Counted from the first letter of the stretch, positions 399 through 61,230 are shown. The stretch is 64,000 bases of DNA from a virus (IMGVR_UViG_3300031853_000025:9412-73411); one strand, 5' to 3'. Made by a program: numbers and translations. The notes: a model not told the origin generated them from the letters alone.

Positions 399-410
399 TA
401 TATGATTGTT
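399..410 (-). promoter_or_regulatory. late-type promoter AACA-N6-TA
   Basis: AACAATCATATA on minus strand, 35 nt upstream of ATG 364. Confidence 0.65.
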
Positions 411-434
411 CTTGGGGTTAAAAAGATCTTAGCG

Positions 435-446
435 AACTTATAATTA
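435..446 (+). promoter_or_regulatory. late-type promoter variant AACT-N6-TA
   Basis: AACTTATAATTA 33 nt upstream of ATG 479; one mismatch to consensus. Confidence 0.4.
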
Positions 447-478
447 AATTAATTGTTTATATTGAGGTGATAAATAAT

Positions 479-1705
479 ATGAAACGCATGGGTAAATTAA
501 TTACAAATAAAACCGATGTAGATTATATTCTTAGCATTGATGAAAAGATCGGTACTAAGAAATCTACTATTATGGAATTATTCGGAGAATTTAATGGTAA
601 AAGAAGATTTAATACATATGATATGATTGATGTTCCCCCTGGAGCATATGGCCCCGAAGGTAGAAAAAATAAAAACAAATTTAGAACGACTATTGGTATC
701 TGGATTTTCAATAGAGTATTTATCGAAAGAGAATTATTCGATATGTATCACTATGTAAATAAAACCATTACCAAGAAAGTATTTAATAAGATTGCTAAAG
801 AGATTACTTTTAAAGTGCTTGAAAATAAGTATCCTCTGGATGCATTGAAACACTATATGCTTAAATGCCAGAAGTTTATGCCTTACGTAACTATTCTATC
901 TGAAACGACTACAATGAAATTATTAACTATTACTCAAAAAGTCGAAGTCGAAAAAGCTAAACTCTTAAAGAAATATGAAAAAGAAGTTAAAGCTAAAGAC
1001 CCATATGTAATTATTAAAATTCAAAATGAATTACTTAAAATGGCCGAGGACGAATTAAAAGATGATCCATCTATGGATATTTATCGTTCTGGTGCTAAAG
1101 AAAAACTTAACAACGACTTCAAGAATATGTATATCATGAAAGGTCTTACTAAAAACCCTGACCCAACTAAGGGTTACAACTTAATTACCTCTAGCTATAT
1201 GACTGGTATTAAAAAAGAAGAATATGCTGATTTTGCTAACTCACTAGCCGAAGGCCCTTACGCTCGTGGTATTAAAACTGGTTTAGGTGGTTACTGGGAA
1301 AAATTAGCTTTACCAGCATATCAGCATATTAAAATGCTTCCTAAGGGAAGTGATTGCCATACAAAAAGACATATTAAAATTAAGCTAACTAATGATAATT
1401 ATGATAAATACATTTATAGCTTTGCTAAAGTTGGTTCTAAGTATGTAGAATTGACTAGTGAAAATAAATCAGATTTTATTGGCAAGGAAGTGCAATTACG
1501 TTTTTCTTCTCTATGTGAAGCAAAAGACGGTATTTGTAATATGTGCGGCGGTAATGCTTTTTATCGTCTTAGTATTACAAATATTGGTGCAGCCATTCCA
1601 CAGGTTCCTGCAAAACTTAAATTAATTTCAATGAAAGCTTTCCATGATTCTCAGGTCGTAATGGAAACCATGGATCCAATGAAAGCTTTTGGATTTGATG
1701 ATTAA
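479..1705 (+). CDS. rpoC: split multisubunit RNA polymerase beta' subunit, C-terminal part (phiKZ gp80-like, probably virion RNAP)
   Basis: ARGIKTGLGGYWEKL matches the bridge helix (KTANSGYLTRRL); SDCHT and LRFSSLCEAKDGICNMCGG match the beta' zinc-binding DCGT and RSPLTC...VCAKCYG motifs. No DxDGD, as expected for the C-terminal piece. GAGGTG RBS favours ATG 479 over GTG 467. Confidence 0.85.
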   Translation: MKRMGKLITNKTDVDYILSIDEKIGTKKSTIMELFGEFNGKRRFNTYDMIDVPPGAYGPEGRKNKNKFRTTIGIWIFNRVFIERELFDMYHYVNKTITKKVFNKIAKEITFKVLENKYPLDALKHYMLKCQKFMPYVTILSETTTMKLLTITQKVEVEKAKLLKKYEKEVKAKDPYVIIKIQNELLKMAEDELKDDPSMDIYRSGAKEKLNNDFKNMYIMKGLTKNPDPTKGYNLITSSYMTGIKKEEYADFANSLAEGPYARGIKTGLGGYWEKLALPAYQHIKMLPKGSDCHTKRHIKIKLTNDNYDKYIYSFAKVGSKYVELTSENKSDFIGKEVQLRFSSLCEAKDGICNMCGGNAFYRLSITNIGAAIPQVPAKLKLISMKAFHDSQVVMETMDPMKAFGFDD

Positions 1706-1719
1706 AGGAGGTATTTATC

Positions 1720-3384
1720 TTGGGAGAAATCCATAAAAATTATCAAGTGCCAGATAAAATATCTTCTGATAAAGATGGTAATATTGAAGTTGGACGAATT
1801 ATAACATGGAGGGATCCCGGTGATCCAGGTAATTTAGTTCCATCAAATCCTAGACATCCAGATGATAAAAAATATCCTAATGACCAACATAATCGAGGTC
1901 ATTCAACAGGAGATATGACATCAGATAATACAGATGAAAAATATACAAATAACTATGGTGAATCTGGTGTTGTATTAGGTGATAAGATTAATCATAATGC
2001 TGAAAAGTATAGACCGATTAATTTCGATAATTTAGTTCCAATTAAAATTACTACCACACAACAACAAAAAATGTTTAAGAATCTTTGTATTCCATCAGCT
2101 ATGCACGCATATTCTGTTGGGGTAGAATTCTTTAAACAATGGATATTAAATAAATTTGATCCAAAGTATTTTAAAACTGTCTATGTAGATGGTAAACACC
2201 TATTCGATGATTTTTCTAAAATCAATGAATTAGATTTAGTCAAGAAAGGTAAACCAGCTATTGGATTCTTTCCTAATATTGATATTGATTACAACCGTGA
2301 AGGCATTGAAGCACAAACATATGACTTAATGTATTACGCTAGAACGTTTGACAATAGAGATGCTTTCTTTAAAGATAATGAAAATAAACTATATATCTCT
2401 ATTGCCTTAGAGCAATATTTAATGAATTTCAATATTAAGATTAAAGTAGATACGAGAGCTAAGCAATTAGACTTAGCTAAGTATCTTAGAATTGCCCTTA
2501 AAGTTGGTGCGACAAGTGGGTATTATCTTGATTTAGATTTACATGTACCATATGAAATGCTATTTGCCTTAGCTGAGCAAGCTGGCTTTGAAGTAGACTA
2601 TGAAACTGGTCAAGTTAAAGATCCATTTAAATTCTTATTATATTTGAATAGTAAATCAGACGTACCATTTGTATATAAATTACGCTCGATCAATGGGATG
2701 AATGAATTCTTCTTACGAGCGCCAAATCTATATACACATATCAATGTACAAGATATGAGTATCGACGATGGTGAAAGACAAAATCAAGTTTCATCAAACT
2801 ATTTTATTGAATTGAATGCTAAACTATTAATGCCTGCTCCTAAGATGTATTGCCTGTTTACTACAAAGAGAAACGATATTATTTCTATGATAGATAAATC
2901 AGGGAATATCAAATCTTATGTGGCTAACTTTACAAATGTACCGACTTTGAACAATCGTGGATGGGAACAGTTTGTAACTCTAGATTACCAAGAGGAAGAT
3001 AGAACTCGTCCATTAGTTATTGATTTAAATGAAATCTTCCAAGGTGAAAATAATATATATAGTCTTATCGAGTATAATAAATACAATATGATTAGTCCAT
3101 CTACATTTATTGATTTCAAATTATTCAATAATAATAAAGAATGGGACTATGATTTAGACTGGGATAATATGATTATTAAAACTAAGAAACCAGTAGATTT
3201 TCAGCTAACTGAGATTGTAATATACATTGATAAAAATTATGTAAATACACAAACGATTACTATGAGCAATGATAGTAATTATAGAGTCACGTATAACAAG
3301 ACAGCTGGTAATAATACTAATGAATCTTTCCGTAGCCAAGAAAAAATGAAACGACTCCGTTTAGGCTTATTTCACAAAAAATAA
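1720..3384 (+). CDS. hypothetical protein, probably virion structural (554 aa)
   Basis: Long ORF, TTG start with AAAGGAGG RBS, same strand directly after the RNAP piece; no motif recognised. Confidence 0.6.
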   Translation: MGEIHKNYQVPDKISSDKDGNIEVGRIITWRDPGDPGNLVPSNPRHPDDKKYPNDQHNRGHSTGDMTSDNTDEKYTNNYGESGVVLGDKINHNAEKYRPINFDNLVPIKITTTQQQKMFKNLCIPSAMHAYSVGVEFFKQWILNKFDPKYFKTVYVDGKHLFDDFSKINELDLVKKGKPAIGFFPNIDIDYNREGIEAQTYDLMYYARTFDNRDAFFKDNENKLYISIALEQYLMNFNIKIKVDTRAKQLDLAKYLRIALKVGATSGYYLDLDLHVPYEMLFALAEQAGFEVDYETGQVKDPFKFLLYLNSKSDVPFVYKLRSINGMNEFFLRAPNLYTHINVQDMSIDDGERQNQVSSNYFIELNAKLLMPAPKMYCLFTTKRNDIISMIDKSGNIKSYVANFTNVPTLNNRGWEQFVTLDYQEEDRTRPLVIDLNEIFQGENNIYSLIEYNKYNMISPSTFIDFKLFNNNKEWDYDLDWDNMIIKTKKPVDFQLTEIVIYIDKNYVNTQTITMSNDSNYRVTYNKTAGNNTNESFRSQEKMKRLRLGLFHKK

Positions 3385-3388
3385 AGTT

Positions 3389-3421
3389 TTTGGAGAGAAG
3401 GGAAATTCCCTTCTCTCCAAA
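3389..3421. terminator. bidirectional terminator/palindrome
   Basis: TTTGGAGAGAAGGGAA-A-TTCCCTTCTCTCCAAA between convergent genes. Confidence 0.85.
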
Positions 3422-3428: not shown

Positions 3429-3815
3429 TTAGCAGTCTTTAAGCCAGTTGTTGAGATCCTTTTTAAGGTCTCTTGTTTCATAATATTTATGCCAGCAGAT
3501 CTGTTTTAGAGTCTGTTCAAGAGATCTCTTCTGGTAAACGTTAAAACCTTTAGTGAAGTCATCGAAAGATTTTAAACGGTCAATTCCAAAATGGTATCCG
3601 CTTCCGGATTCAGTATAAATATAGATTTTTTTACCGTTTTTATCAAATCCCACAAAAGCCTTTCCTTCGACACTAGAAATGATAGAAGTTCCGGTTTCTT
3701 CACTTAACTGCTCTAACGCATTTGCTAAATGAAACAAATCTCTTTTCAACGGGCTATTGAAGATGTTGTTGTATGCACAAGAGACTGCATTTTTTAAAGA
3801 TTTAAGATTTAACAT
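3429..3815 (-). CDS. small hypothetical early-cassette protein A (128 aa)
   Basis: ATG 3815 preceded by AGAGGAGA RBS (the track start 3845 lies inside the leader); isolated gene between two terminators. Confidence 0.75.
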   Translation of the reverse strand: MLNLKSLKNAVSCAYNNIFNSPLKRDLFHLANALEQLSEETGTSIISSVEGKAFVGFDKNGKKIYIYTESGSGYHFGIDRLKSFDDFTKGFNVYQKRSLEQTLKQICWHKYYETRDLKKDLNNWLKDC

Positions 3816-3923
3816 GGTATTTCTCCTCTCTGGGATCATAGACATTTTCTATTTAATCCCAATGCAAATGATTAAAATATGAATAGATGTGTATTCTTTC
3901 ATCCATTCACAATTATAATATAT
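3816..3923 (-). promoter_or_regulatory. early-type promoter plus structured leader (cassette A)
   Basis: ATATATTATAATTGTGAATG at 3904-3923, then a 5' hairpin, TTTGCATTGGGAT...GTCTATGATCCCAGAGAGGAGA, then ATG. Confidence 0.75.
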
Positions 3924-5710: not shown

Positions 5711-6491
5711 AAAAAATATTATCCTCCTTTCGGGTAATGTCTTGCTGTTTCATAAAGCTAGATACTTGTAGAGCATAAGAAGCTTCTTCTGCTAATTTAA
5801 TTAAAGTATCTATTTTTTCTTGCTTTGTTTTCTCATCAATATTTTGAAATTCAGCCATTAAGAAACCAATAGGTGGTTCTTCAAGTTCAGACTTATCTAA
5901 AATAGCAATAGCTATATAAGAATTAAGTGTGTCATCTTGGTTTAATAATAGCTTATCTACAATATTTAAGTCTTTAGCACTTTTAGTTGAAATAAAAATG
6001 CTGTTATGAAATAAATCACTAAGAAAATCATCTACGGCATTGATGGGGATATTTACTTGCTGTGGTTGTTTTAAAATAGTATTTGAGTGTGGTTTAAGAA
6101 TCTCACAAATGCAACTCATCTTAATAAAAGGAAATCCGCTTAAGCTGTAGGTACCATTATGAAAAAGATAAATTGCAATCCGTTCAGCATCTACCTCTTC
6201 GCAGGCTTTCTTTAGATCTGTTTTCAATAAAGTATTTAGTTTCACGTAAAGCTTAACTAATTGATTTGGTTTCTCTTCAATTTTCCTCTCAGCCTCCTGG
6301 CTTTGGTGTGTAACTTCGGCTGCAATTCGTTTATGAATAAATTCATCTTTATCTAAAAATTTTAAGAAAACTCTTAGGCTAAGAAGAATAATTGCAAGAG
6401 AAAAGAAAACAGCCAAAAGCAAGAAGATTGCGAGTTCAAAAAATGGATCATTGGAGAGAATTAATTTAAAAAACTCTAAAATTGTTTCCAT
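5703..6491 (-). CDS. holin candidate: N-terminal TM helix plus GAF-like domain (T4 holin T-like architecture)
   Basis: Hydrophobic FFELAIFLLLAVFFSLAIILLSLRVF followed by AERIAIYLFHNG...KMSCICE...YIAIAI...PIGFLMAEF, a GAF-like pattern. Confidence 0.5.
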   Translation of the reverse strand: METILEFFKLILSNDPFFELAIFLLLAVFFSLAIILLSLRVFLKFLDKDEFIHKRIAAEVTHQSQEAERKIEEKPNQLVKLYVKLNTLLKTDLKKACEEVDAERIAIYLFHNGTYSLSGFPFIKMSCICEILKPHSNTILKQPQQVNIPINAVDDFLSDLFHNSIFISTKSAKDLNIVDKLLLNQDDTLNSYIAIAILDKSELEEPPIGFLMAEFQNIDEKTKQEKIDTLIKLAEEASYALQVSSFMKQQDITRKEDNIFYG

Positions 6492-6529: not shown

Positions 6530-6541
6530 TAATTAAATGTT
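6530..6541 (-). promoter_or_regulatory. late-type promoter AACA-N6-TA
   Basis: AACATTTAATTA 39 nt upstream of ATG 6491. Confidence 0.6.
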
Positions 6542-13592: not shown

Positions 13593-13604
13593 TATAAATA
13601 TGTT
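13593..13604 (-). promoter_or_regulatory. late-type promoter AACA-N6-TA
   Basis: AACATATTTATA 33 nt upstream of ATG 13560, heading the fibre operon. Confidence 0.65.
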
Positions 13605-14614: not shown

Positions 14615-14711
14615 AATGTTCTCCTCTCTGGGATCATAGATATTTTTTTATATTGGATCCCAAAACCATGTAAGTATGGATACTATTTATCCATTCACGT
14701 ATATAATATAT
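14615..14711 (-). promoter_or_regulatory. early-type promoter plus structured leader (cassette B)
   Basis: ATATATTATATACGTGAATG at 14692-14711, ATGGATA/TATCCAT hairpin, TGGGATC...ATCTATGATCCCAGAGAGGAGA, then ATG. Confidence 0.75.
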
Positions 14712-15712: not shown

Positions 15713-15724
15713 TATTAGTGTGTT
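15713..15724 (-). promoter_or_regulatory. late-type promoter AACA-N6-TA (lysis genes)
   Basis: AACACACTAATA 44 nt upstream of ATG 15669. Confidence 0.65.
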
Positions 15725-15726: not shown

Positions 15727-15738
15727 AACATACTAGTA
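15727..15738 (+). promoter_or_regulatory. late-type promoter AACA-N6-TA (long fibre)
   Basis: AACATACTAGTA 29 nt upstream of ATG 15767. Confidence 0.65.
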
Positions 15739-22516: not shown

Positions 22517-22551
22517 ATTTTCATTGCCCTCCATTTTAAGTTAAAATTAAT

Positions 22552-22563
22552 TATCTATATGTT
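22552..22563 (-). promoter_or_regulatory. late-type promoter AACA-N6-TA
   Basis: AACATATAGATA overlapping the upstream stop codon, 36 nt before ATG 22516. Confidence 0.55.
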
Positions 22564-26993: not shown

Positions 26994-27005
26994 AACATTT
27001 ATTTA
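26994..27005 (+). promoter_or_regulatory. late-type promoter AACA-N6-TA
   Basis: AACATTTATTTA 25 nt upstream of ATG 27030; a divergent TACA-N6-TA variant lies at 26957-26968. Confidence 0.6.
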
Positions 27006-28161: not shown

Positions 28162-28189
28162 ATCCCTAACCAGAATTCTGGTTAGGGAT
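28162..28189. terminator. perfect 28-nt palindrome / bidirectional terminator
   Basis: ATCCCTAACCAGAA|TTCTGGTTAGGGAT between convergent genes. Confidence 0.85.
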
Positions 28190-28962: not shown

Positions 28963-29474
28963 AAGAATGCACTCCTAGCTGGCGTTCTAACTACATAACT
29001 AGTTAGTTGTTGCCCGCTGCATACTTTCTCATGTAGCATTAAAAATGTATCCATATACTTAATGATGTTTGATACATCAAATAAATCTGTCTCATTTATA
29101 GACTTGAGATTGTCTAAGTCTTCTTTTAAGAAGACTAAATTACATCTCACACCGAAGTAGAATAGGAAACTATGAATGATTGTTTCTACTATGGGAATAT
29201 CGATTTTACGGTCGAATATAATAACTACATCCGAACCATTATATGCTTCAACAATTAACCCAAAGAGTTCATAAAATAACCCTTCGGATTTCTGAAATAA
29301 AGCGTCATGGAATTCTTTATCAAACTCAATGGAGTCTGAACTAAAATGCCTTAATACGGATAAGGCATTATTAAGATAATCCATATTATTAATATCGAAC
29401 ACCATTGGATTGTCTTTTAGTTCTTCTAAGAGAGAGTTAGCTATTTCTCTTTCCGAGAAGCTGATTGTCATCAT
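28956..29474 (-). CDS. hypothetical protein (172 aa)
   Basis: Overlaps both neighbours. Confidence 0.7.
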   Translation of the reverse strand: MMTISFSEREIANSLLEELKDNPMVFDINNMDYLNNALSVLRHFSSDSIEFDKEFHDALFQKSEGLFYELFGLIVEAYNGSDVVIIFDRKIDIPIVETIIHSFLFYFGVRCNLVFLKEDLDNLKSINETDLFDVSNIIKYMDTFLMLHEKVCSGQQLTSYVVRTPARSAFLW

Positions 29475-34852: not shown

Positions 34853-34898
34853 AATAAACCTCTCCTTTACATAAGTAAATAAAATAATAATGGATCTT

Positions 34899-34917
34899 AC
34901 TCACAAATATAATATAC
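34899..34917 (-). promoter_or_regulatory. early-type promoter variant
   Basis: GTATATTATATTTGTGAGT, close to the cassette consensus, 47 nt upstream of ATG 34852. Confidence 0.5.
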
Positions 34918-35038: not shown

Positions 35039-35058
35039 ATATATTATAATTGTGAATG
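35039..35058 (+). promoter_or_regulatory. early-type promoter (cassette E)
   Basis: Exact ATATATTATAATTGTGAATG, as at 3904 and 49386. Confidence 0.75.
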
Positions 35059-35827: not shown

Positions 35828-35839
35828 TACTATTATGTT
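35828..35839 (-). promoter_or_regulatory. late-type promoter AACA-N6-TA
   Basis: AACATAATAGTA 44 nt upstream of ATG 35784. Confidence 0.6.
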
Positions 35840-38133: not shown

Positions 38134-38156
38134 AAAGAGCCTAAGGTAGGCTCTTT
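38134..38156. terminator. terminator hairpin
   Basis: AAAGAGCCTA-AGG-TAGGCTCTTT. Confidence 0.75.
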
Positions 38157-38165
38157 AAATTTCTG

Positions 38166-38918
38166 TTATAGCAGGTCTCCTAGAATTTCAGCTCTAGAAA
38201 GAACTACGTTATTGTATAATGATAAGCTACCATTATATGGTGGAAATGCTAGTCTCATTCCAAGAGATGGATTAGCTAAACTATTATAATTAGATTTAGC
38301 AGTTTGAATATATTCTCTAGTCATCGTGTCTACGTATACATTATAATTCAATAAACGTTTTAATTCAGTCTTAAGTTTATTATAGTAATCAGTAGATACA
38401 TTAAAATTAGATGGAAAATTAGAACGAATGAATGCACTTACATAGTTCTTTTTAATCTCATCCGTATGACCATTAACGTGGATTAGTTTAATTCTTAAGC
38501 CTTGGGAATATGCTGCGTTCATAATAATAGCGTCTATTAATTCTCTATTTTTTAATTCATTACCAGATGAAGTCAGTATAGATTCATTACCATTATTAAC
38601 GTTTCTATACCAACCATATATCCAATCTCTTAAACTATAAACGCTATATTGAGAATCACTAAAAATAGTAAAAGATCTTTCTCCATATCTCATACTCAAT
38701 TCTTTACATATTCTCATAGCCGCATAGATGGAATACATTTCTCCATAGTTATTCGTGCAATGCTTAAATGGAAATAGCTTTACATCTACTATGGAGTCTG
38801 ATGACTGGTGTACAATTACAACGCCTCCTACAACGATATTACCATTTCTAGTATCGACTTTACCATCGACACTAGCATCTGTAAATAATAAAAACTTGTC
38901 TTTAAATATTCTATTCAT
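38166..38918 (-). CDS. rnhA: ribonuclease H (RNase HI family)
   Basis: LFTDAS, TNNYGEM, IFSDSQYS..SL.DW...W, LKNRELI, HVNGH, NVYVD catalytic D/E/D/H/D motifs; GGAGGG RBS favours ATG 38918. Confidence 0.85.
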   Translation of the reverse strand: MNRIFKDKFLLFTDASVDGKVDTRNGNIVVGGVVIVHQSSDSIVDVKLFPFKHCTNNYGEMYSIYAAMRICKELSMRYGERSFTIFSDSQYSVYSLRDWIYGWYRNVNNGNESILTSSGNELKNRELIDAIIMNAAYSQGLRIKLIHVNGHTDEIKKNYVSAFIRSNFPSNFNVSTDYYNKLKTELKRLLNYNVYVDTMTREYIQTAKSNYNSLANPSLGMRLAFPPYNGSLSLYNNVVLSRAEILGDLL

Positions 38919-39006: not shown

Positions 39007-39525
39007 TTAATCTGCGAATAATTGTTTATAAATATTTCTACGATATTTGACTTTGGTATCAGGGTCTTCCATTAGTAAAGAAGATTTAATGATTCTAAAT
39101 TGCTTTCTAAATTTAATAGGGAATTTAGCATCCCCTGTAAGATCACTTACAATCTCTGTAAGATTAAGATATTTGGCTTTTGTATAGAACGCTTTATATA
39201 TTTCTTCCCCACCAATAACAAAAATCTTTCTTCTAGACTGAAAGACTCTGCAATATAAGATAGCCTCGTCTACACTATGAACTACCATGGCTCCTTTGAC
39301 TTTATAGTCCTTATTATGAGTCAAAATTACATTCACTCTATCAGGTAATAGATGTCCAATAGACTCATATGTTTTTCTACCCATAATAACTATATTATTT
39401 GTAGTCAGTTCCTTAAAGTTTTTCATATCTTCTGGTATATGATAAAGAAGCTTACCATCTTTACTAATAGAACCATCTTTAGTTATTGCTGCTAATAATG
39501 TAATATTTTTGCTATGGTCTATCAT
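39007..39525 (-). CDS. folA: dihydrofolate reductase
   Basis: IPEDMKNFKELT, VIMGRKTYESI, LPDRVNVILT, IFVIGGEEIY, GDAKFP. Confidence 0.95.
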   Translation of the reverse strand: MIDHSKNITLLAAITKDGSISKDGKLLYHIPEDMKNFKELTTNNIVIMGRKTYESIGHLLPDRVNVILTHNKDYKVKGAMVVHSVDEAILYCRVFQSRRKIFVIGGEEIYKAFYTKAKYLNLTEIVSDLTGDAKFPIKFRKQFRIIKSSLLMEDPDTKVKYRRNIYKQLFAD

Positions 39526-40048: not shown

Positions 40049-40081
40049 GATACACACCTGCCTTCTATTAAAACAAAAATA

Positions 40082-40114
40082 AACCACCTCTATAGAATTT
40101 CTATAGAGGTGGTT
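40082..40114. terminator. palindrome/terminator between nrdD and nrdG
   Basis: AACCACCTCTATAGAA-T-TTCTATAGAGGTGGTT. Confidence 0.75.
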
Positions 40115-44410: not shown

Positions 44411-45208
44411 TTAAACTGCAACTTTCATCTTTAAGACTCCTAAATCGTTATAACCATTTAGACAAATATCATCAATAGTAAACTTATAGAAGTCTTTAAC
44501 CTCTGGATTGATTTCTAATTTTGGAGCAGCAATCTTAGTTGCAACATCCATTCTTTCAATCTGCTCTTTAATCATTGGTATATGATTTTCATAAATATGA
44601 GCATTATTAATTACATGAGTAAATAAACCAGGTTTTAAATTAGTTACTTGAGCAATCAAGTATACCAGAGTAGCGTATTGCGTTAGATTAAAGCAGATCC
44701 CAATGCCCCAGTCCCCGCTGCGCTGGCTCAAAATACAGTTTAGATAGCCATCGGTTACATCCCACATGGTTTCAAAAGCACATGGCTGCAATGCCATATC
44801 AGGTAAGTCTTCATTATTCCATAATGTAACAATCATACGCCTAGACTGATTGTCATTCTTAAGAGTATCGATAAGATTATCTAATTGATGATACTTTTTG
44901 ATTTGATAGCCATACGCTTTACCAATTGTACCATCTTCTCTCATCCATTCATCCCAAACATGACAACCCATTTTCTGTAGTTCTCTTACGTCATTTGACT
45001 GTTTTTGCCAAATCCATAAGAGTTCTTTAATTGCTGTTTTAAATGCTACATGCTTACTAGATAGAATTGGAAATTCTTTTCTTAAATCAAACTGCATAAT
45101 CTGATGAGGTAGTTTGTAAGTCGGAATTCCTGTTCTGTTATTGCTATAATATCCATGATCTAAGATATTCTTAGCAATTGTTAAATATTGTACATCTGCA
45201 TTTGCCAT
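44411..45208 (-). CDS. thyA: thymidylate synthase
   Basis: NRTG, FPIL, ELLWIW, YGYQ, SRRMIV, ALQPC (catalytic Cys), QRSGD...[12 protein letters not shown]. Confidence 0.95.
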
Positions 45209-46788: not shown

Positions 46789-47220
46789 TTATACAATAAT
46801 TTCTTCACAATACCCATCATTTGTCGTATAATAAATATGACGGATTCCCATAGCCTTAATTTGTGCCATACACGCATTACACGGACGACTCATAGCTACT
46901 TTATGGGTTTTCTTTGTCTCTCTATACACATACAATTTAGCTTTGCTTAAATCATAATCAAAATAACGGATTTTAAGAAGACAAGCCATTTCCGCATGTA
47001 ATGTATTTTTACACATTTCGGACGGCTCATCTTCAAATCTCAATTTGTTTAATCTTTTTTGCAATGGATGTGATTTATTATTATTAGCGGAAACAAAAAT
47101 GTTATCATTACTAATAACCAATACAGCTCCAATATGAGCACTTTTAACATTGCTTGTTTTACTAACTTCTTTCGCAATATTAAAGTATTTCATATCTCTA
47201 TGAGTAATCAATACAATCAA
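46789..47220 (-). CDS. CMP/dCMP-type zinc deaminase
   Basis: HIGAVLV, TLHAEMACL, MSRPCNACM (HAE...PCxxC), GIRHIYYTT. Confidence 0.85.
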   Translation of the reverse strand: MIVLITHRDMKYFNIAKEVSKTSNVKSAHIGAVLVISNDNIFVSANNNKSHPLQKRLNKLRFEDEPSEMCKNTLHAEMACLLKIRYFDYDLSKAKLYVYRETKKTHKVAMSRPCNACMAQIKAMGIRHIYYTTNDGYCEEIIV

Positions 47221-47978
47221 CCTTCTTTAAGAAAATGTGCCAAGTTACTATCAAAGATTTGCCTAATCATATTAAAGATTTGATCTTCTGTTTTACAACT
47301 CTTATCAATATTATCAAGCTCAATGTCATATTGCCTAAAATCGGTTGCTCCATAACTAAACGGAAACTCTTTAAGAAAATTATTTACCTTATCTAAATAA
47401 GTATACTTGTCTTCATTAATTTCGTCATTATGTGATTTATCCACTACTCTACGTTGCTCAATAATGGTCTTACTATCAATGATATTATGAATCATCTTAT
47501 AAATAAGATTTGCTTTCGGTAATTTAAATTCTTTTTCATTTAATTCATATATTTCTCTTTCAAAGTCTTTATAAAGATTTTCATATGAATAAATATTAAA
47601 CTTTGCTTCTTTATTGCCTGTCTTTAATGCATATGATGCACCCTGGTAATAAATATTACTATACCAAAATCTATCAAATATCATAATGTAATTCTTATCA
47701 TAATATTCTTTAAGCTGCTTATAATATACATCATACATATCAAGCATAAATAATGTACTTACCATCTTCGGAGATAACGGTTGTTTATTAATATTCCCCT
47801 TAAAATACTCTCTCAATAAATAACTCGAATCTCCATCATAATTCGGAAAGCTTACTACAATTACATTACTCGTATATGTATCTTCAATATAGTCTTGCAA
47901 CTTACAAGCATTCGTATACTTAAAAGTACCATCTATACCCTCAAAGTCAATAATAAATGGTTTACTAAGTTTAAACAT
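47217..47978 (-). CDS. tmk: thymidylate kinase-like dNMP kinase
   Basis: IIDFEGIDGTFKYT (variant P-loop), VSFPNY, IFDRFWYSNIYYQG. Confidence 0.7.
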   Translation of the reverse strand: MFKLSKPFIIDFEGIDGTFKYTNACKLQDYIEDTYTSNVIVVSFPNYDGDSSYLLREYFKGNINKQPLSPKMVSTLFMLDMYDVYYKQLKEYYDKNYIMIFDRFWYSNIYYQGASYALKTGNKEAKFNIYSYENLYKDFEREIYELNEKEFKLPKANLIYKMIHNIIDSKTIIEQRRVVDKSHNDEINEDKYTYLDKVNNFLKEFPFSYGATDFRQYDIELDNIDKSCKTEDQIFNMIRQIFDSNLAHFLKEG

Positions 47979-49327: not shown

Positions 49328-49405
49328 AATTAAACTTCCTTTCTGGGATCATAGACCCAATGCAAATATTGGTGAGCAAATTACTCATTCACAATTATAA
49401 TATAT
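49328..49405 (-). promoter_or_regulatory. early-type promoter plus structured leader (cassette C)
   Basis: ATATATTATAATTGTGAATG at 49386-49405; TGAG/CTCA hairpin; TTTGCATTGGGTCTATGATCCCAGAAAGGAAG. Confidence 0.75.
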
Positions 49406-49898: not shown

Positions 49899-49979
49899 TT
49901 TAGTTCTCCTTTTCTCTGGTTATATAAACCAGAACCCGTTTTTATGTACACTAATGGTACATTCATAATTATAATATAT
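49899..49979 (-). promoter_or_regulatory. early-type promoter plus two-hairpin leader (cassette D)
   Basis: ATATATTATAATTATGAATG at 49960-49979; ATGTAC/GTACAT and TCTGGTT/AACCAGA hairpins before the RBS. Confidence 0.7.
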
Positions 49980-56000: not shown

Positions 56001-59000
56001 AACTTAATCATTGGATTAACAAAGTTATCTTTTAATACACCAACTAAACCACCATGACGAGACTTACCTTCAGGGTCACGAGGATCTTTATAGCCAAGAA
56101 TCAAGTTCTTAAAAGTTTCTGATGTCCCAACCATTCCGACACCAGTGCCTAGAATCATATTTGGAAGCAATCCACCAAATGGGCCAAAAGCTATTGTACC
56201 AAGAACAGATGCTCCAATACCTGGAATATTCTTTTTAAAGTGATCTTGAACTTTCTTTGAAATTAAACCTTCCTTGTGGAATTTTTTAACACTGCCATCG
56301 TCATTAGTGATAGTAAAGTCTTTACCGAATAAAGATTCTTGCAAAGATTTACTATTCTTAGCCATTACAGCGCCACTGCCGATTACAGCCATACCAAGTG
56401 GGCCTGTGCCTAGAAGTAATCCACTAGCTACAGCTGATGGTAAGCCAATCTTCATTAAATCTGGAGCGTATTTATGAATTGTATCTTGTAAGCTTTTTGG
56501 AATTACTCCGCCAGTACGTTTTTCGTTTTCATCTTTCTTACCAAGCAATAAATCTTTAGCTGACTCAGAATCACGTAAAATATTAACTACACCGCCAGCT
56601 AGAGCACCGGCCATAATACCTAGTGGGCCAGCTAAAATGCCGCCAACTAAAGCACCTGCACCGCCACCCATGACTCCTCTAGCAGTTAATTTAGATTTAT
56701 CTTTTGAAACTTCTTCAAGGTCATTACCAATACCTTCATCTTTACTCTTAACGAATTCTACAAGATTATTGAACCAGCTACTAACTTTATCTTTAACTTT
56801 TTCACCAGCAGCTTGTCCTAAAGATTTATTATTTTCTTTATTTAAAATCTTTAGTGCTTTCATAGCTTGATTAAATTGTACAAAGTTGAATTTGCCTTTG
56901 CCAGCACCAGCTAATGGGTCAAATGAAGTTGTACCATCGGCATGAGAATAAATCTTTTTAAGGAAGTTATCTTTAATAGCTTTTTCTCTTCGTCTATCAT
57001 CATTTCTATCAGCTTTATCTACATCTGGGTTAAACGGATTTAGATCTGCTGGAATAATCATTTCACCTTTAGAGATAGTGGTTATTCCATCAGCTGGTAC
57101 AGATAAAGAACCATTGTAATTGTTGTCCAAATTTTCTTCGGGGGGTTTACCTTGTGATGTATCAGTTGTTTTTTGAGTTTTGTCATCTTTTTGCTCATCT
57201 TCTGGTTTATTTCCATTTAATTTATTTTTAACAGCAGCTACTGCACTGTCAGCTGTACTTGTAGCAGCATCAACAGCATTTTTTCCAGCATTTGTAATTT
57301 TATCTCCAACGCTTCTAGCATCACTCTTGATAGCTTCCTTAGTATCAGAAAAGAAGGTTTTACCAAAAAATGCACTAGCAAAGTCATTAGCTGTACCCTT
57401 AATCCAATTCCAAGCTGGCTTAAATACTTTTGTAGTTAAATAATTTTTGACACTGGTAAATGTTTCAGTTACCTTGTAACCAAGAAGATCAAAGAAACCT
57501 GAGATTTCTTTGCCGTCTTTATCTTTGAATTTATGCTCAAAGAATAGATTATATAAACCACGATCTGCAATAGATAAAGAACCAGCAATAAAGTTTCTTG
57601 GTTCTTTAACAATCATTTCTGCTAAATCAAGAATAGCATCTACTTTTTCAGTTTTAAATTTCTTACCAATATTACGAAGTTTTTCTTCATTGGCGTCTTT
57701 CCTAGTAGACATATCTTTCGATGCATCATACTCAACGTCATCGTATTTATCTTTTTCGATAACTTTATCTGGATTATTCTTTGCGGCTTCAGCTGCTTCT
57801 TGATCTCGTTTTTCTTTTTCTGCTCTAGCTTTCTCAAGATAATTTTCTGGGAGTTTAAAATCGCCACCGTCTAAGTTTTGTTTTTTAGCATCTCGTGGAA
57901 GATCGCCGCCGATTGCTGAACCGTATCTACGAATAACATTTAATTCTTCATAAATATGCTGTAAATAATCAAGCTGGTCAAACCCATACTCATCTGTGGT
58001 TCTTCCAAAGATCGAAGGCCCACCTTTAGAGTTCTTACCACCTGCTGTAGTACTTTTAAACATTTTGTTGCTTTTATTAAATAGAATAGACCGAATGTCA
58101 TCACCATTTAATTCAGCTCTTTTAAGATCTTTAGTGATAGTGTTTTTAGCACTTAAAGTATCATTAGCAATATTACGTTTATCAATCTTACTAGAGATTT
58201 GAGAATAAATTTTCTTGCCTTCTTCAGAAAGCATATTATTTTGCTCAAATCCAGATAATGTATCATGAGCATATGCATACTCTTTAATAGCATCATTTAC
58301 AGACTTTTTAAGCGTATCATCTACATTTTCTAATGAGGCTAATGCATTCTTTACAGATTCCTCTAGTGTTGAAGTAGCATATTTTTTAGAATCTTCTAAT
58401 CTTTTATTAAAGTCTTCTTTAACTTTAGAACGTTTAGTCCATTTACCAGCATCGAAATCAAAATAAACAGGCTCTTCTCCTGTTAATGCAGAAGTAATCT
58501 GACTCAAATATGTCGGAATAACTTCAAGAATAGATTTACGTGTCTTACCATCAAATGGTACAGCGCCTTTTTCGTATTTACTTGTATCTATTGATGTCTT
58601 TTTATTGGTTCTTAGACCAAAAATTTTACTCATGGTAGATGCAAATAAATTATCTGAGTTATCACTTTTGAGATTCAGTTCAGCAATAAGATTACTAAAA
58701 ATACCTCCAAAGGTTTTATCTAATGATCTGTGAGCTCTTTTAACGTCATCACCCAAGGCAGATGATACCGCCATTGTAATTAATCCGCTTAAGGGATTAG
58801 CAAACATGGCTTTAAGTTGCTGAGGATCCATGTCAATGACACTAGAAATACCTGGAAGAATATCATCAATATTATTTTTAAAATTCTTCTTTATAGCTTC
58901 ACCATACTCTAGTAAGTTTGGTAAGCCATTTGCATCAAGAATATCATAGAATGAAGTATGTTCTTTAGGATTCCTACGTTTATTATTGCGATCACGAATA

Positions 59001-59734
59001 GCTTGTTCTTCTTTAAAGCGTACTCGCTCCATATCAAGCATTTCTTTTAAGATAGCATTATTTTCTCTAGCTAACTTAGTAGATTCATCAAAGAACTTAC
59101 GGGAGTTCTCAATATGAGTCCTCATAGCATTTTCATTAAAATTAACTAAATTAGATAAAGTTTGATTTGTATTAAAAATACCGTTTTTAAGATCACCAAA
59201 GAATTTAGCTTGCTGAGAAATAATAAGCGAAGTAGATTGCTTAGTGATTTCAGCATTATATTTACCAGATTTAACTACAGCACCAGCTATTGCGTCCGTA
59301 CTAATTTCAGCTGTATTCTGTAATGTTTTAATTGTAGCTATAGTATCAGAAGATGGCCCTTCCGAAGAAGACGAGTCTCCGCCTTCTTCGTCGAAATTGA
59401 AATCATCGAAGCCCATATCTTCGTCAAAGCTTTCTTCAATAAGTTTACCTTCTCTTGCTGCATCGTAGAATTTACCAGTTTTTAAATCACTTAATGCTGA
59501 TTTAAAACCAAAGTCTGCGGCTTGATAAACATTAGTAGATTTAATTGCTTCACTGGCTCTACGTAATGTAGTTTTATAATCTCTAATACCATGGTAAACG
59601 TCTTTAGCTAACTGCTGATTGTTTTCATCCATAATGAATTTACCAATATTGGTATTTTCTTTATAGGCTTCAGCACTAGCATAAACGATTGATTTACCTA
59701 GATTCTTTAGATAATTTGTAACCTTAATAGCCAA
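50048..59734 (-). CDS. tape-measure-like tail protein with C39-like peptidase, glucosaminidase-like and CHAP/NlpC-P60-like domains (3228 aa)
   Basis: YKQ...DSGCGPVAA...HYVTATGY...IQDP (C39-like); ILAQIIQESGW...YNYGN...AGYYE (GH73-like); GCTAFAN...GDVGII...DHAVI (CHAP-like); Gly/Ala-rich hydrophobic middle region; TTG start with AAGGAGG. Confidence 0.85.
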   Translation of the reverse strand: MAIKVTNYLKNLGKSIVYASAEAYKENTNIGKFIMDENNQQLAKDVYHGIRDYKTTLRRASEAIKSTNVYQAADFGFKSALSDLKTGKFYDAAREGKLIEESFDEDMGFDDFNFDEEGGDSSSSEGPSSDTIATIKTLQNTAEISTDAIAGAVVKSGKYNAEITKQSTSLIISQQAKFFGDLKNGIFNTNQTLSNLVNFNENAMRTHIENSRKFFDESTKLARENNAILKEMLDMERVRFKEEQAIRDRNNKRRNPKEHTSFYDILDANGLPNLLEYGEAIKKNFKNNIDDILPGISSVIDMDPQQLKAMFANPLSGLITMAVSSALGDDVKRAHRSLDKTFGGIFSNLIAELNLKSDNSDNLFASTMSKIFGLRTNKKTSIDTSKYEKGAVPFDGKTRKSILEVIPTYLSQITSALTGEEPVYFDFDAGKWTKRSKVKEDFNKRLEDSKKYATSTLEESVKNALASLENVDDTLKKSVNDAIKEYAYAHDTLSGFEQNNMLSEEGKKIYSQISSKIDKRNIANDTLSAKNTITKDLKRAELNGDDIRSILFNKSNKMFKSTTAGGKNSKGGPSIFGRTTDEYGFDQLDYLQHIYEELNVIRRYGSAIGGDLPRDAKKQNLDGGDFKLPENYLEKARAEKEKRDQEAAEAAKNNPDKVIEKDKYDDVEYDASKDMSTRKDANEEKLRNIGKKFKTEKVDAILDLAEMIVKEPRNFIAGSLSIADRGLYNLFFEHKFKDKDGKEISGFFDLLGYKVTETFTSVKNYLTTKVFKPAWNWIKGTANDFASAFFGKTFFSDTKEAIKSDARSVGDKITNAGKNAVDAATSTADSAVAAVKNKLNGNKPEDEQKDDKTQKTTDTSQGKPPEENLDNNYNGSLSVPADGITTISKGEMIIPADLNPFNPDVDKADRNDDRRREKAIKDNFLKKIYSHADGTTSFDPLAGAGKGKFNFVQFNQAMKALKILNKENNKSLGQAAGEKVKDKVSSWFNNLVEFVKSKDEGIGNDLEEVSKDKSKLTARGVMGGGAGALVGGILAGPLGIMAGALAGGVVNILRDSESAKDLLLGKKDENEKRTGGVIPKSLQDTIHKYAPDLMKIGLPSAVASGLLLGTGPLGMAVIGSGAVMAKNSKSLQESLFGKDFTITNDDGSVKKFHKEGLISKKVQDHFKKNIPGIGASVLGTIAFGPFGGLLPNMILGTGVGMVGTSETFKNLILGYKDPRDPEGKSRHGGLVGVLKDNFVNPMIKFGKFMTSTAYKWFKESFITPISKWTSVIGRELMHQGKNLTYYIKEGISWAFEKTVGVPLYKVINEKIISPITKGLSSVGKTLLKGASYPLNAVRAVGKFTSNLADKVKLNQYGRGAIGNTISTERLMDAASMGRTYKTMGFDQDLAGMDAKEAEELEAKLLVLQGKSGAKKAYRNARQDFSTQMSRYFRGKENDLIKRLRKRFENEDLTPEQIAEEADNIAKDKNLSVKEKEALVKVLTDYGKKIETARKAAQEDSKLQDQYRTELMNKFGGKGYDFTNGRDINNALNAVHKDRIAKESTAYKDEAEKAIEASKKIEEDKLVYLKKVYGVTQSIGSMIAKKFGFDPAAFSILDNSETGDVPQNTLTNVKNEAEKAIEASKKIDEDKLVYLKKVYGVTQSIGSMIAKKFGFDPTAFAILGTSETGDVPQNTLTNVKNDSKAESENKEKDKAKNNVSTTTTDAEGNIWKTATDGSKVLVGSEANADKKRAKDAEDKKQQGWFASIGDKLKGFVGLGGKKEKKEEGGFLHNLADSLMGKSGALFSILKGGALAAIAGPLIIKALPIITQFLKDNKDAIIDAGKEVFKGIVEIGKEAVGMIFDSIADSFKNGDFATGLLQIVAGAFIGNKMLGGLPGMVLSKGGGMLYDRFKNRNKGKETTTKNTETTESNKKGKKGKGKNKRSKQKNKAAKMSENASTAATETKATVAAETGGKSGSKGKWGSILSGVATAAGLVLPFMSESSAETAEASGGIQPGQMYAANEDGELELIDENGKAINDGDQDNSSGDFMDTLNTILDIKYSVSDFFKKDTSDVSLSEEAGSIAEDARNTKPEGTSAFSKFTQKMNDIKTKAMNKITPITESISNAASKTKGKVKGMSDKALIYLKNLLTAGIDKVKTLMPGLSKKLPASMVQKLSNEFIASLVKNGSKYMTKIAAQIGVAMTGVGAIPVAIVNLVSAFDNIYNEGWRRWYNNADVLYNEDLGDDVKYVSVLAGAISTLLFSVIPVKWVFKTLASILGLDLSQAQARAQEAVDDYNADKESHPKGAPDTVADVEEYNAMYEKGLLESVKDTGETLISFGKDTLTKMNQAAKNIYKYVGDKATAAKNWAKNNAKWLAENGMNWFKQAYQSVASTASNLKDRAVSFVKNKYESAKQTLGEVKDEVSARAGNVADAWNNNSGIGAVVAVGQAATSSEDYKKEHGSDKSSSDSGSSSDSSSGSDSDAKGQGKHGLFGRGYYKQTQYANVGFNVPGDTIRQTIGDSGCGPVAAVNALQALGRGSGANDPVIQASSYALNGGFKGKDTGTDPRFFNSYASKYNASAKDIAEGNVKTELQKGHPVVLSGEDPNGESNKHPFAEYPHYVTATGYNAKNDTVTIQDPESRYDNQRYKLSNVLSKTTMAKSFSKNNKNTSYNNRVLRWGRGTEETPTAENCELVRYAEIVSGITGVRSDFILAQIIQESGWEYFKPGTHKPGYNYGNAGGAHGFATYNSLEEAAEFMANKTIAYADGEGGHRSELAAASQAGDPAAFAQILKDAGYYEAPLSEYTNGVTSVLKNLKEQGYSAGAINSSGMSSSGASAPQNSYGIFDAVMKPFDSLNNSLNQVMGGITSEGPFKQISDVSTKIFGSMLGGVSPQQQQQGGKSGGAWKGSTATSEGIRQASAWAEEIKDHVQDSVNPPYWYGPSGCTAFANDYLQHAGVNPINLYVPTAMAEAKSAGMWKDASQPAAEGDVGIIDTDGSMDEPDHAVIEDGQGGFWSNMTSGHKVSHGRHSDFFGNIWGYISTGSGNGQVVTDGKQGANDNAEAAGKHGPLALRFGRGGKSSNKAMNAMGKSISSANKRYGKGIISDTLKSAFNSGALNSSIQGIVGKVTGGNKDISNILDQVLPTPQTDASATNNTDLSQAGVIELLKIAVQLLTTIATNTGNMGSMSKEAVEKQQASINSAINSIGQMMAASNQSMMNGVSQMISSNNGMSYEQQHMSLSLDQLAAL
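54693..55092 (-). repeat. 198-nt (66-aa) tandem duplication inside the tail protein
   Basis: EAEKAIEASKKI(E/D)EDKLVYLKKVYGVTQSIGSMIAKKFGFDP.AF.IL..SETGDVPQNTLTNVKN occurs twice; copies offset by 198 nt. Confidence 0.95.
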
Positions 59735-59759
59735 GGGTTAAAACCTCCTTTCTAAACAT

Positions 59760-59771
59760 TACTAAGATGTT
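59760..59771 (-). promoter_or_regulatory. late-type promoter AACA-N6-TA
   Basis: AACATCTTAGTA 26 nt upstream of TTG 59734. Confidence 0.65.
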
Positions 59772-59791
59772 CCTGTAGAAAGACAGCAGGA

Positions 59792-60070: not shown

Positions 60071-60595
60071 TTATTTAATGTGGCTCGGGCATGGAGAAAT
60101 AACTTTAATGCTTTCATATGCAGGAACCTTTGTTTCTCCCTTAGTGAAGATAGCATTGCCATTATCGTCAACACCAGTCTGCTTCGGGAAATAACGAGTG
60201 GATGCCGGAATGTCTTTCTTAATAAGAGAAACATTAGACTTTTCACGGCAACCGAGACCAATCTTACGACCAGTCTGTAGATAAGAGTTAAAGAACTCTT
60301 TGCTAAGGCCAATCATCGTTTCAGCATCGCTGCGCTTTACTTCATACTTTTCAGCAATAGCAGCTGCTTCCTCTTTATTCATCTTAGTCGTATCAGCAAT
60401 GATACCACCAATCATAGATTTAAATTCCTTAGCTGGGCAGTATTCGCCTTCCTTACCTTCTTTACCATAGACACCTACAACATAAGAGGTATCATTGAGG
60501 AAAGCACGCATTACACGTACTTCATCTCGGTTAGATGCAGATGCATGAGTGAGATTCGTGTTGATCTCTTTAATCAAATCAGTAACTTTTTCCAT
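60071..60595 (-). CDS. putative HU/IHF-like DNA-binding protein with N-terminal extension (174 aa)
   Basis: C-terminal half FFNSYLQTGRKIGLG...PASTRYFPKQTG...GETKVPAYESIKV parallels the HU pattern ALKKGEKVQLIGFG...ARTGRNPQTG..I.IPA...KF. Confidence 0.45.
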   Translation of the reverse strand: MEKVTDLIKEINTNLTHASASNRDEVRVMRAFLNDTSYVVGVYGKEGKEGEYCPAKEFKSMIGGIIADTTKMNKEEAAAIAEKYEVKRSDAETMIGLSKEFFNSYLQTGRKIGLGCREKSNVSLIKKDIPASTRYFPKQTGVDDNGNAIFTKGETKVPAYESIKVISPCPSHIK

Positions 60596-60635
60596 AATAA
60601 ATTTCTCCTTTCGGTTTTAACCAAATTACTTGATT

Positions 60636-60647
60636 TATCAAATTGTT
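60636..60647 (-). promoter_or_regulatory. late-type promoter AACA-N6-TA
   Basis: AACAATTTGATA 41 nt upstream of ATG 60595. Confidence 0.6.
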
Positions 60648-60668
60648 TAATCTATAATAATTAACTAT

Positions 60669-60839
60669 TTAATTATTATTGCGTGTTTTGAGGCATTTGA
60701 TATAATCAACATAATCAAATGCTGGAATCTTTTTAACCTTACCCTTAGAGATAATTAAATCATTAATCTCCTGAGGCGTATACTTACTGAGTTCTAAAAT
60801 AAAGTCTTTTTTAGAAATCAATTGTTCTTTTTTAGCCAT
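60669..60839 (-). CDS. small basic hypothetical protein (56 aa; below the ORF-track cutoff)
   Basis: MAKKEQLISKKDFILELSKYTPQEINDLIISKGKVKKIPAFDYVDYIKCLKTRNNN; GAGGT RBS. Confidence 0.65.
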   Translation of the reverse strand: MAKKEQLISKKDFILELSKYTPQEINDLIISKGKVKKIPAFDYVDYIKCLKTRNNN

Positions 60840-60910
60840 ATTTAGTACCTCTTAGAACGAATTTGATTACTTTAACGTTGCTGTGTTAATAAAAAACAAA
60901 ATGGGCAAAA

Positions 60911-60937
60911 CTCCCATACACCAATGGTGTATGGGAG
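60911..60937. terminator. palindrome/terminator
   Basis: CTCCCATACACCA-A-TGGTGTATGGGAG. Confidence 0.7.
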
Positions 60938-61218
60938 AAATATGTGGTTGAGTACAAAAATGTTGAACATATCACCGATAACCTATTATTTAGGGTGTAC
61001 CAAGAAACGGTGTGAGTGATTTGAAACTACTACTGAATGATTATTCTAAAAACCATTAGCTACTAAAAGGGAAATACAACTTGAACATTGTATTTTTAGA
61101 CTGTCAAATGATACATTTTTAGAAATTAGAATTTTTACTGCTCACATATTTTTTTCTTTATGAATATGTTAAAGGCATTTATCATAATTATCACTAAAGT
61201 CTAAAAGCCCTTATCTTG

Positions 61219-61230
61219 AACAATACAATA
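61219..61230 (+). promoter_or_regulatory. late-type promoter AACA-N6-TA
   Basis: AACAATACAATA 29 nt upstream of ATG 61259. Confidence 0.65.

Follow-up and report, generated by a model that had tools for sequence, protein, structure and literature searches.

Introduction

The locus studied here raises the question of how one phage can combine a promoter that phage AR9 reads only on uracil-containing DNA with genes for the synthesis of thymidylate. The stretch analysed, referred to as the window, comprises 64,000 nucleotides (bases 9412-73411 of the 73,411-bp IMG/VR virus contig IMGVR_UViG_3300031853_000025). In AR9, the late consensus is AACA-N6-TA/G, with the last base being the transcription start (PMC5312081), and the late promoters of AR9/PBS1 are read by a non-virion RNA polymerase (RNAP) with the subunit gp226 (Lavysh 2017, PMC5312081; Sokolova 2017, PMC5449584; Fraser 2022, PMC9209446). 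The AR9 non-virion RNAP is the textbook example of template-strand promoter recognition with a strict requirement for uracil, a property that is explained as allowing the enzyme to disregard host DNA. A reading of the window from its sequence alone had listed AACA-N6-TA elements upstream of 11 genes or gene blocks together with genes of a thymidylate supply route. It had proposed that either the promoter-specificity subunit has lost its uracil dependence or the DNA is of mixed composition. The explanation that we favor, with a probability of roughly 0.65, is that these elements are AR9-type late promoters on thymine DNA and that the polymerase of the phage's clade tolerates thymine.

AACA-N6-TA elements upstream of virion genes

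All 11 elements listed by the sequence-only reading are exact copies of AACA-N6-TA in sense orientation to the next gene, and two good sites that it had missed were found on the minus strand at 29000-29011 and 38156-38167 (Table 1). The distance from the last A of the motif to the start codon had been given as 25-44 nt. This holds for ten of the 11 sites; the element at 22552 is only 18 nt from its gene, so that the actual range is 18-44 nt. The elements at 15713..15724 (minus strand) and 15727..15738 (plus strand) form a back-to-back divergent pair.

To evaluate enrichment, we called 61 genes on the whole contig, counted sense matches at positions -70 to -8, and used 2000 dinucleotide-preserving shuffles as the null. 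The 73-kb contig contained 13 sense matches upstream of genes versus 2.07 ± 1.40 in the shuffled sequences, none of which (0/2000) reached 13. The shuffles place the chance of a match at 3.4% per upstream region, in line with the few percent estimated earlier. When the spacer of AACA-Nk-TA was varied from 2 to 11, a peak was seen only at k = 6 (13 versus 1-7 sense matches), and the upstream matches at this spacer were strongly oriented, with 13 sense versus 3 antisense. Elsewhere the motif is rare: 36 copies were observed across the window versus 74.7 ± 8.6 expected, and the total count at k = 6 is the lowest among all spacers from 2 to 11. Enrichment before genes with avoidance elsewhere is the pattern expected of a functional, selected signal.

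The aligned sites give the extended consensus aaAACA-N6-TAA. The genes behind the motif mostly encode virion proteins, including tail-fibre-like, endolysin-like and structural proteins, a 3228-aa giant protein and a virion RNAP subunit, and none of the nucleotide-metabolism genes is preceded by AACA-N6-TA. The early or late timing of genes in the window was assigned from gene function. The motif, its fixed spacing, the distance to the start codon and the association with virion genes match the mapped late promoters of AR9 (PMC5312081), as had been proposed, and we interpret the elements as putative late promoters of the AR9 type.

Some sites do not follow this pattern. No exact AACA-N6-TA precedes the gene at 22555-26931 (minus strand) for a 1458-aa virion structural protein, although this gene has a gap of 98 nt upstream and a good site for ribosome binding. 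Its late promoter may be a variant, as are 17 of those in AR9. Two exact copies of the motif on the minus strand are located differently. The copy at 41999-42010 is 8 nt before a GTG that opens the open reading frame (ORF) with exon 2 of nrdD, inside an intron, and the copy at 28657-28668 is inside the gene 28189-28962 and has the same spacer as site 35828. These may be internal promoters or chance matches.

Relatives of the phage and conservation of the promoter spacing

The contig is estimated by CheckV to be ~30% complete, which corresponds to a jumbo phage of roughly 250 kb, of which the window is about a quarter; its GC content is 29-36%. The closest cultured phages found with tblastn were AR9/PBS1/BpSp/Goe21, Staphylococcus S6-like phages, Listeria LPJP1, Yersinia phiR1-37 and Fusobacterium JD-Fnp, at only 25-31% identity. 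A single-protein scan of IMG/VR with a virion RNAP subunit gave no match, and an alignment-based scan with this subunit recovered 66 relatives with 25-63% identity to the window; relatives are referred to below by G numbers. A maximum-likelihood tree built on the virion RNAP subunit groups the window with G013 as its sister (support 99), and the two fall within a clade of 20 rows (support 100). AR9, LPJP1, S6 and phiR1-37 form one separate clade (support 97) without the thymidylate synthases ThyA and ThyX. G013 (161.8 kb) is colinear with the window at 27-71% amino acid identity.

Among the other relatives, G008 is 202.6 kb long and 82% complete. G008:1-57797 and G009:73564-131360, from different samples, overlap at 99.998% identity over 57.8 kb, and together G008 and G009 are one phage of at least about 276 kb. 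The 'provirus' flag of G008 in IMG/VR looks wrong for such a phage type.

We applied the upstream test to each of several genomes by comparing sense matches to the AACA motif at spacer 6 with the mean of the other spacers. AR9, the positive control, gave 74 versus 23.7. A peak at spacer 6 was also seen in LPJP1 (42 versus 16.4), S6 (33 versus 14.2) and phiR1-37 (54 versus 14.9), in four relatives that encode a thymidylate synthase, namely G008 (46 versus 13.8), G013 (26 versus 7.7), G018 (33 versus 13.3) and G025 (24 versus 11.4), and in our own contig (12 versus 3.6). The base at +2 differs by lineage: T predominates in S6 (79%) and LPJP1 (84%), G in phiR1-37 (78%) and A in the window (85%) and G008 (71%), and AR9 is mixed. 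The initiating region may therefore have evolved together with each polymerase. A-rich positions -13/-12, like the A at +2, are common to the window and G008.

Because the motif has only six specified bases and intergenic DNA is AT-rich, the elements might be a by-product of base composition or promoters for the host polymerase rather than phage late promoters. The outgroup G051, in which no gp226 was detected, has a weak excess at spacer 6 (13 versus 6.4), which favors this alternative. However, in G051 sense matches are about equal to antisense matches and there is no depletion, whereas on our contig the shuffles, the restriction of the peak to spacer 6, the sense bias and the depletion of the motif inside genes all argue against this explanation. 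The spacer-specific peak also recurs in nine related genomes, including that of AR9 where promoters were mapped experimentally. We consider this alternative largely refuted and give it hardly any weight.

A second motif, TATATTATAWT-N3-GAATG, occurs in seven copies on the contig, six of them within the window, each before small genes (Table 1). It matches the AR9 early consensus AAATATATATTAT-N6-G(+1), including the G six nt downstream (PMC5312081). With both an AR9-like late motif and an AR9-like early motif, the phage appears to contain both halves of the AR9 promoter grammar. Metagenomes probed with this 19-mer gave more than 116 matches, mostly chance, and yielded two contigs bearing gp226, L099 and L143.

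Thymidylate synthesis in the window and its relatives

The ThyA encoded in the window passes the TIGR03284 equivalog cut-off of NCBIfam (208 versus 108 bits) and is 46-50% identical to ThyA of Bacillus phage and B. subtilis, with B. subtilis ThyA 1B02 as the best solved match (1.5e-62). The FN asparagine pointed out earlier (Asn174) is retained, as are Cys143, Arg123/124, Arg163, Asp166, His204 and Tyr206. From the alignment, all catalytic residues are present and the enzyme is predicted to be intact. Aligned with 1B02, it has two unusual substitutions, in 'GNPFN' (Pro to Cys) and in 'GDCHVY' (Asp to Asn). We also considered that this protein might be a dUMP/dCMP hydroxymethylase; we rejected this on the basis of the equivalog score, the identity to bona fide ThyA, Asn174 and the presence of dihydrofolate reductase (DHFR).

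The DHFR gene claimed from the sequence was confirmed with a score of 1.3e-46. Dihydrofolate is produced only by the ThyA-type reaction, and it is for this reason that DHFR matters. Two further enzymes had been counted toward a dTTP supply, and these carry less information. The deaminase has the fold proposed for it. As evidence for thymine DNA it fails, because AR9 has a 'dCMP deaminase' too, and the PBS1 homologue of the AR9 protein is a dCTP deaminase feeding dUTP (PMC12697855). The dTMP-like kinase matches only the N-terminal half of the profile, scores below the equivalog cut-offs and provides no evidence for thymine DNA.

We then compared these genes with those of the relatives. PF00303 had no match in AR9, BpSp, S6, phiR1-37, LPJP1 or JD-Fnp1, no ThyX was found in the first five of these, and neither ThyA nor ThyX was found in G001, G003 or G004. 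The relatives with proven deoxyuridine-containing DNA (dU-DNA), which are AR9, BpSp, S6 and phiR1-37, thus all lack both enzymes, and in phages of this type such a lack keeps dUMP from being drained to dTMP. ThyA is encoded by 22 of 41 large IMG/VR relatives and ThyX by seven others (G014-G019 and G023). Within the window's clade, every genome at least 89% complete has ThyA or ThyX. ThyA adjoins DHFR in G008 and in G013, whose ThyA is 59% identical to that of the window. Since ThyA and ThyX alternate within one clade by non-orthologous displacement, selection would seem to act on thymidylate synthesis itself and not on a passenger gene. The intact ThyA and DHFR of the window and the absence of ThyA/ThyX from all proven dU-DNA relatives tested indirectly support the idea, put forward earlier, that this phage makes thymidine DNA.

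Three other markers were examined, among them two expected of dU-DNA phages of the PBS1/AR9, S6 and phiR1-37 type, an enzyme that degrades thymidine nucleotides (Dtm or Dtt) and an inhibitor of uracil glycosylase. A dUTPase (PF00692) had no match in the contig, in G008/G009, in AR9 or in S6, and this marker is therefore uninformative. The uracil-glycosylase inhibitor of AR9 had no tblastn match outside AR9, and S6 and phiR1-37 were no exception. PF06941, the PBS1-type dTMP phosphatase, had no match in any genome, including the positive control AR9.

The gp226 specificity subunit and residue 206

In AR9 gp226, Val206 in helix 2.1bis (YSDVVIW) is 3.9 Å from C5 of the -10 uracil, Tyr210 stacks on -9G, and a V206G mutant accepts thymine at -10 (PMC9209446). 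On the 73-kb contig we found no gp226 homologue by protein search with AR9 gp226, by tblastn with AR9 and P0017 (a gp226 variant with Thr206), or with a profile hidden Markov model run with --max over all ORFs. None was found in the 161.8-kb fragment of the closest relative, G013. Among relatives at least 90% complete, a gp226 homologue was present in 10/10 of a first search batch and 10/12 of a second, and homologues were recovered from 34 of the 41 large relatives.

Five isolates and 13 IMG/VR homologues all have Val at position 206; the latter include those of three complete genomes, none of which has ThyA or ThyX. All dU-DNA isolates and LPJP1 keep the helix Y[SKN]DxVIW. Homologues from the window's clade align Val206 with Ile (G014, G015, G019), Pro (G016), Met (G017), Gly (G018, G024-G030), Arg (G020), Val (G023) or Lys (G031). 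Outside this clade the position is occupied by Gln, Leu, Arg or Lys, or by Val within a diverged HNSVIF stretch. In the window's clade and two neighbouring clades that encode thymidylate synthase, Val206 and Tyr210 are replaced while Ile207/Trp208 are mostly kept; diverged homologues have Lys, Met or Gln in place of Tyr210. BLASTP independently pairs AR9 Val206 with Gly in G025 in an ungapped block, and the Gly206-bearing genomes (G018, G024-G030) encode ThyX or ThyA. Of the two contigs recovered with the early promoter, L099 has its gp226 homologue directly behind a promoter of the 19-mer type and has Gln at 206, and L143 has Arg-Phe at 206-207. G008 encodes a gp226 of the L099 type as well as ThyA and DHFR, and it shows a strong peak of the AACA motif at spacer 6 and an early promoter like that of AR9. 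In the beta-N subunit gp105, Arg363, which stacks on the -10 base, is kept in G009. Lys375 of gp105 was also tried as a marker and dropped because the alignment is unreliable and the residue is not conserved even among dU-DNA phages.

The form of the helix is associated with thymidylate synthesis. Among genomes at least 89% complete, ThyA or ThyX is present in 0/8 with the canonical helix (YSDxVIW, Val206) and in 17/21 with a diverged helix (Fisher 1.2e-4), although these counts are not phylogenetically independent and represent essentially one phylogenetic split, which weighs against our explanation.

Position 206 varies to an unusual degree among closely related clades (G, I, P, M, R, K, Q, L, V), and DNA modification is frequent in jumbo phages (PMC13282480). 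This would fit a phage whose T positions hold a modified pyrimidine in place of plain T or U, with the variation at 206 being an adaptation to C5 substituents. The evidence from the biosynthetic genes runs the other way. Known thymidine hypermodification routes begin at 5-hydroxymethyl-dUMP, which comes from a ThyA-like hydroxymethylase that does not produce dihydrofolate. The window enzyme has the score and identity of a bona fide thymidylate synthase, DHFR is present, and no modification genes were found among the ORFs scanned. A modified pyrimidine is thus a slim prospect.

Three additional observations concern gp226 in particular relatives. The homologues of three relatives match in two pieces 0.6-1.9 kb apart: L331/L336 (G016), L332/L335 (G023) and L333/L337 (G020). 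Some split homologues have an in-frame TAG and the LPJP1 gene (L010) has an in-frame TAA; the gp226 gene seems to have been hit repeatedly by insertions (introns, inteins, homing elements) or to be subject to recoding of stop codons. LPJP1 (MZ422438.1) has the gp226 helix YKDKVIW, a spacer-6 peak and no ThyA/ThyX. These markers would predict dU-DNA in LPJP1, and we found no statement on its DNA chemistry. Finally, G038 (L346), G047/G048 (L347, L348) and G049 (L354), which are 84-100% complete (CheckV), have no ThyA/ThyX and have Lys or Arg at 206. G038 groups with the dU-DNA isolates in the RNAP tree. These markers thus do not predict the DNA chemistry of this set of genomes.

Promoter recognition and DNA chemistry

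According to the explanation that we favor, this phage has two split multisubunit RNAPs and belongs to a large uncultivated radiation that is sister to the AR9/PBS1-S6-phiR1-37 group. The non-virion RNAP, together with a gp226-like subunit whose gene would lie on the missing part of the genome, would recognize the AACA elements on the template strand. By homology with AR9, transcription would start at the final A of AACA-N6-TA, and the injected virion RNAP would recognize the AT-rich element. If the DNA contains thymine, the template element is 3'-TTGT-5' rather than 3'-UUGU-5'. The gp226 of relatives keeps the pocket walls (Ile207, Trp208 and beta-N Arg363) and replaces Val206, whose C-beta excludes the thymine methyl in AR9; judging from these relatives and from the structural work on AR9, a remodelled helix 2.1bis may make room for the thymine methyls. 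The enzyme of the window's clade would then tolerate thymine, and uracil dependence would be a feature of the AR9 branch and not of the promoter grammar. The ThyA and DHFR of the window and the replacement of Val206 and Tyr210 in its clade speak indirectly against a need for uracil at template positions -11 and -10.

Several observations weigh against this explanation. The key residue 206 is readable in relatives only, since the genes for gp226 and the non-virion RNAP are not on the 73-kb contig. The bulky residues Gln, Arg, Lys, Leu and Ile still have a C-beta and alone do not predict room for a methyl. In AR9, V206G rescued only -10T, and -11T is excluded by DNA conformation and not by a side chain (PMC9209446). 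In both G023 (ThyX) and the G032/34/36/53 clade (ThyA), Val still aligns with Val206 within a helix that has diverged, and we rejected residue 206 as a strict predictor because Val co-occurs there with ThyA or ThyX. Four complete non-Val genomes (G033 aside, these are G038, G048 and G049) are without ThyA/ThyX.

An alternative is that the phage packages dU-DNA, fully or partly, that its late polymerase is uracil-dependent, and that ThyA and DHFR provide a transient early dTTP supply or are a dispensable recent acquisition. The late promoter is identical to that of AR9, and the closest characterised phages all have dU-DNA (PMC7598289). As in PBS1, the deaminase may act on dCTP (PMC12697855), the contig and G008/G009 lack a recognizable dUTPase, and with only ~30% of the genome on the contig, genes of a uracil pathway could lie elsewhere. 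By contrast, none of the eight canonical-helix genomes, four of them with chemically proven dU-DNA, has ThyA or ThyX, and the displacement of one thymidylate synthase by the other within the clade indicates that the function is selected. The proximity of ThyA to DHFR in G008 and G013 and the poor conservation of the uracil-discriminating residues in the window's clade also argue against it, as does the lack of a homologue of the AR9 uracil-glycosylase inhibitor, although S6 and phiR1-37 likewise gave no match. We consider packaging of dU-DNA unlikely.

As a comparison, the window has in common with AR9/PBS1 the AACA-N6-T(A/G) consensus and its fixed spacer of 6 nt, a distance of about 30 nt between presumed start site and start codon, the motif before virion genes including virion RNAP genes, an AT-rich early promoter with G six nt downstream, and homologous RNAP subunits. 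However, AR9 DNA contains dU, its genome encodes no thymidylate synthase, and its gp226 helix (YSDVVIWTY) includes the thymine-excluding Val206, whereas the window phage encodes ThyA and DHFR, its clade's gp226 replaces Val206/Tyr210, its consensus adds A at +2 and A-rich -13/-12, and the RNAPs are only 25-30% identical. S6, phiR1-37 and BpSp (all dU-DNA) and LPJP1 also have the spacer-6 AACA-N6-T(A/G) peak, gp226 homologues and related RNAPs. They differ from the window in that all keep Y[SKN]DxVIW without ThyA and ThyX, and in the +2 base, which is T (S6, LPJP1) or G (phiR1-37) versus A. The engineered AR9 V206G protein (PMC9209446) has a natural counterpart in the Gly at 206 with Ile207-Trp208 of G018 and G024-G030. 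In the engineered protein the background is uracil-adapted and only -10T was rescued, whereas the predicted natural proteins differ along the whole helix (Tyr210 to K/M/Q). phiKZ (gp68, TATG late promoters; PMC7598289, PMC7618050) is likewise a jumbo phage with two split multisubunit RNAPs; its DNA contains thymine, and it has a sigma-like fifth subunit that is a gp226 homologue. Its late consensus is T-3ATG+1 with no AACA element, phiKZ-like phages build a phage nucleus, and the virion RNAP subunits of the window are closer to the AR9 group.

The combination of AR9-type grammar, thymidylate synthesis and unconserved uracil-gating residues in an uncultivated radiation appears to be new; phages with AR9-type grammar and thymidylate synthesis were not described in the reviews and papers searched. 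If the same element is read on thymine DNA, promoter grammar and base chemistry are separable, and self-versus-host discrimination is achieved in another way in the thymine-DNA relatives. A broader proposal, to which we give even odds, is that neither gp226-type template-strand recognition nor the AACA-N6-TA grammar is tied to uracil DNA. The large uncultivated jumbo-phage radiation, represented by dozens of near-complete IMG/VR genomes, would use the same promoter on thymine DNA with natural position-206 variants including Gly, and uracil dependence, perhaps together with dU-DNA, would be derived in the single AR9/S6/phiR1-37 branch. To speak of uracil dependence as 'lost' presumes a direction, and a gain of this dependence in the AR9 branch agrees with the tree just as well. 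The natural V206 series (G, I, P, M, R, K, Q, L) offers ready variants for how the thymine methyl fits at -10 and -11. The gp226 helix motif and the absence of ThyA/ThyX could serve as a working pair of genomic markers to predict dU-DNA in uncultivated jumbo phages.

Other features of the window

Table 1. Predicted features of the window. Positions are counted from its first base; distances for late promoters run from the last A of the motif to the start codon.
Feature	Position	Strand	Remarks
Late promoter	399..410	-	35 nt before gene ending at 364 (203-aa Cys-repeat protein, heads minus-strand operon)
Virion RNAP subunit	467..1705	+	Homologue of AR9 g264, 28.5% identity; 63% identity to G013
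Early promoter TATATTATAAT-TGT-GAATG	3904..3922	-	Before 3429-3845; AR9 early consensus (PMC5312081)
Late promoter	6530..6541	-	39 nt before 5703-6491, then tail-fibre-like gene 4139-5710
Late promoter	13593..13604	-	33 nt before 12493-13560, heads four-gene tail-fibre-like operon down to 6574
Early promoter variant TATATTATATA-CGT-GAATG	14692..14710	-	Before ORF 14282-14614
Late promoter	15713..15724	-	44 nt before 15073-15669 (endolysin-like, phrog_5867)
Late promoter	15727..15738	+	29 nt before 15767-20803 (1678-aa fibre-like protein)
Late promoter	22552..22563	-	18 nt before 21686-22534 (weak match to virion structural protein family)
Late promoter	26994..27005	+	25 nt before 27030-27695 (phrog_12252; conserved in G008, G013)
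Probable late promoter	29000..29011	-	38 nt before 28189-28962; within upstream gene
Early promoter variant	34898..34916	-	Before 34304-34852
Early promoter	35040..35058	+	Before 35088-35267
Late promoter	35828..35839	-	44 nt before 35314-35784
Probable late promoter	38156..38167	-	40 nt before 37385-38116 (conserved in G008, G013, L143)
DHFR	39007..39525	-	1.3e-46; recycles dihydrofolate from ThyA-type reaction
ThyA	44411..45208	-	PF00303 5.6e-89, 298 bits; no late motif upstream
dCMP/cytidine-deaminase-fold enzyme	46789..47220	-	dCMP or dCTP substrate not assignable; not diagnostic for T or U
Diverged dTMP-kinase-like P-loop kinase	47217..47978	-	N-terminal half only matches; not diagnostic
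Early promoter	49386..49404	-	Heads minus-strand block containing nucleotide-metabolism genes
Early promoter	49960..49978	-	Before 49518-49898
Late promoter	59760..59771	-	26 nt before 3228-aa gene 50048-59734
Late promoter	60636..60647	-	41 nt before 60071-60595
Late promoter	61219..61230	+	29 nt before virion RNAP beta-like subunit gene
Virion RNAP beta-like subunit	61259..64000, continues past window end	+	Homologue of AR9 g189, 25% identity

The gene for the 1678-aa protein had no megablast match among phage records. The anaerobic ribonucleotide reductase gene nrdD (40127-44281, minus strand) is in three coding pieces at 43784-44281, 40855-41991 and 40127-40546, and is followed by NrdG at 39539-40087. 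The first gap in nrdD holds an HNH/NUMOD4 homing-endonuclease ORF at 42112-43038, and the gaps are therefore presumably group I introns.

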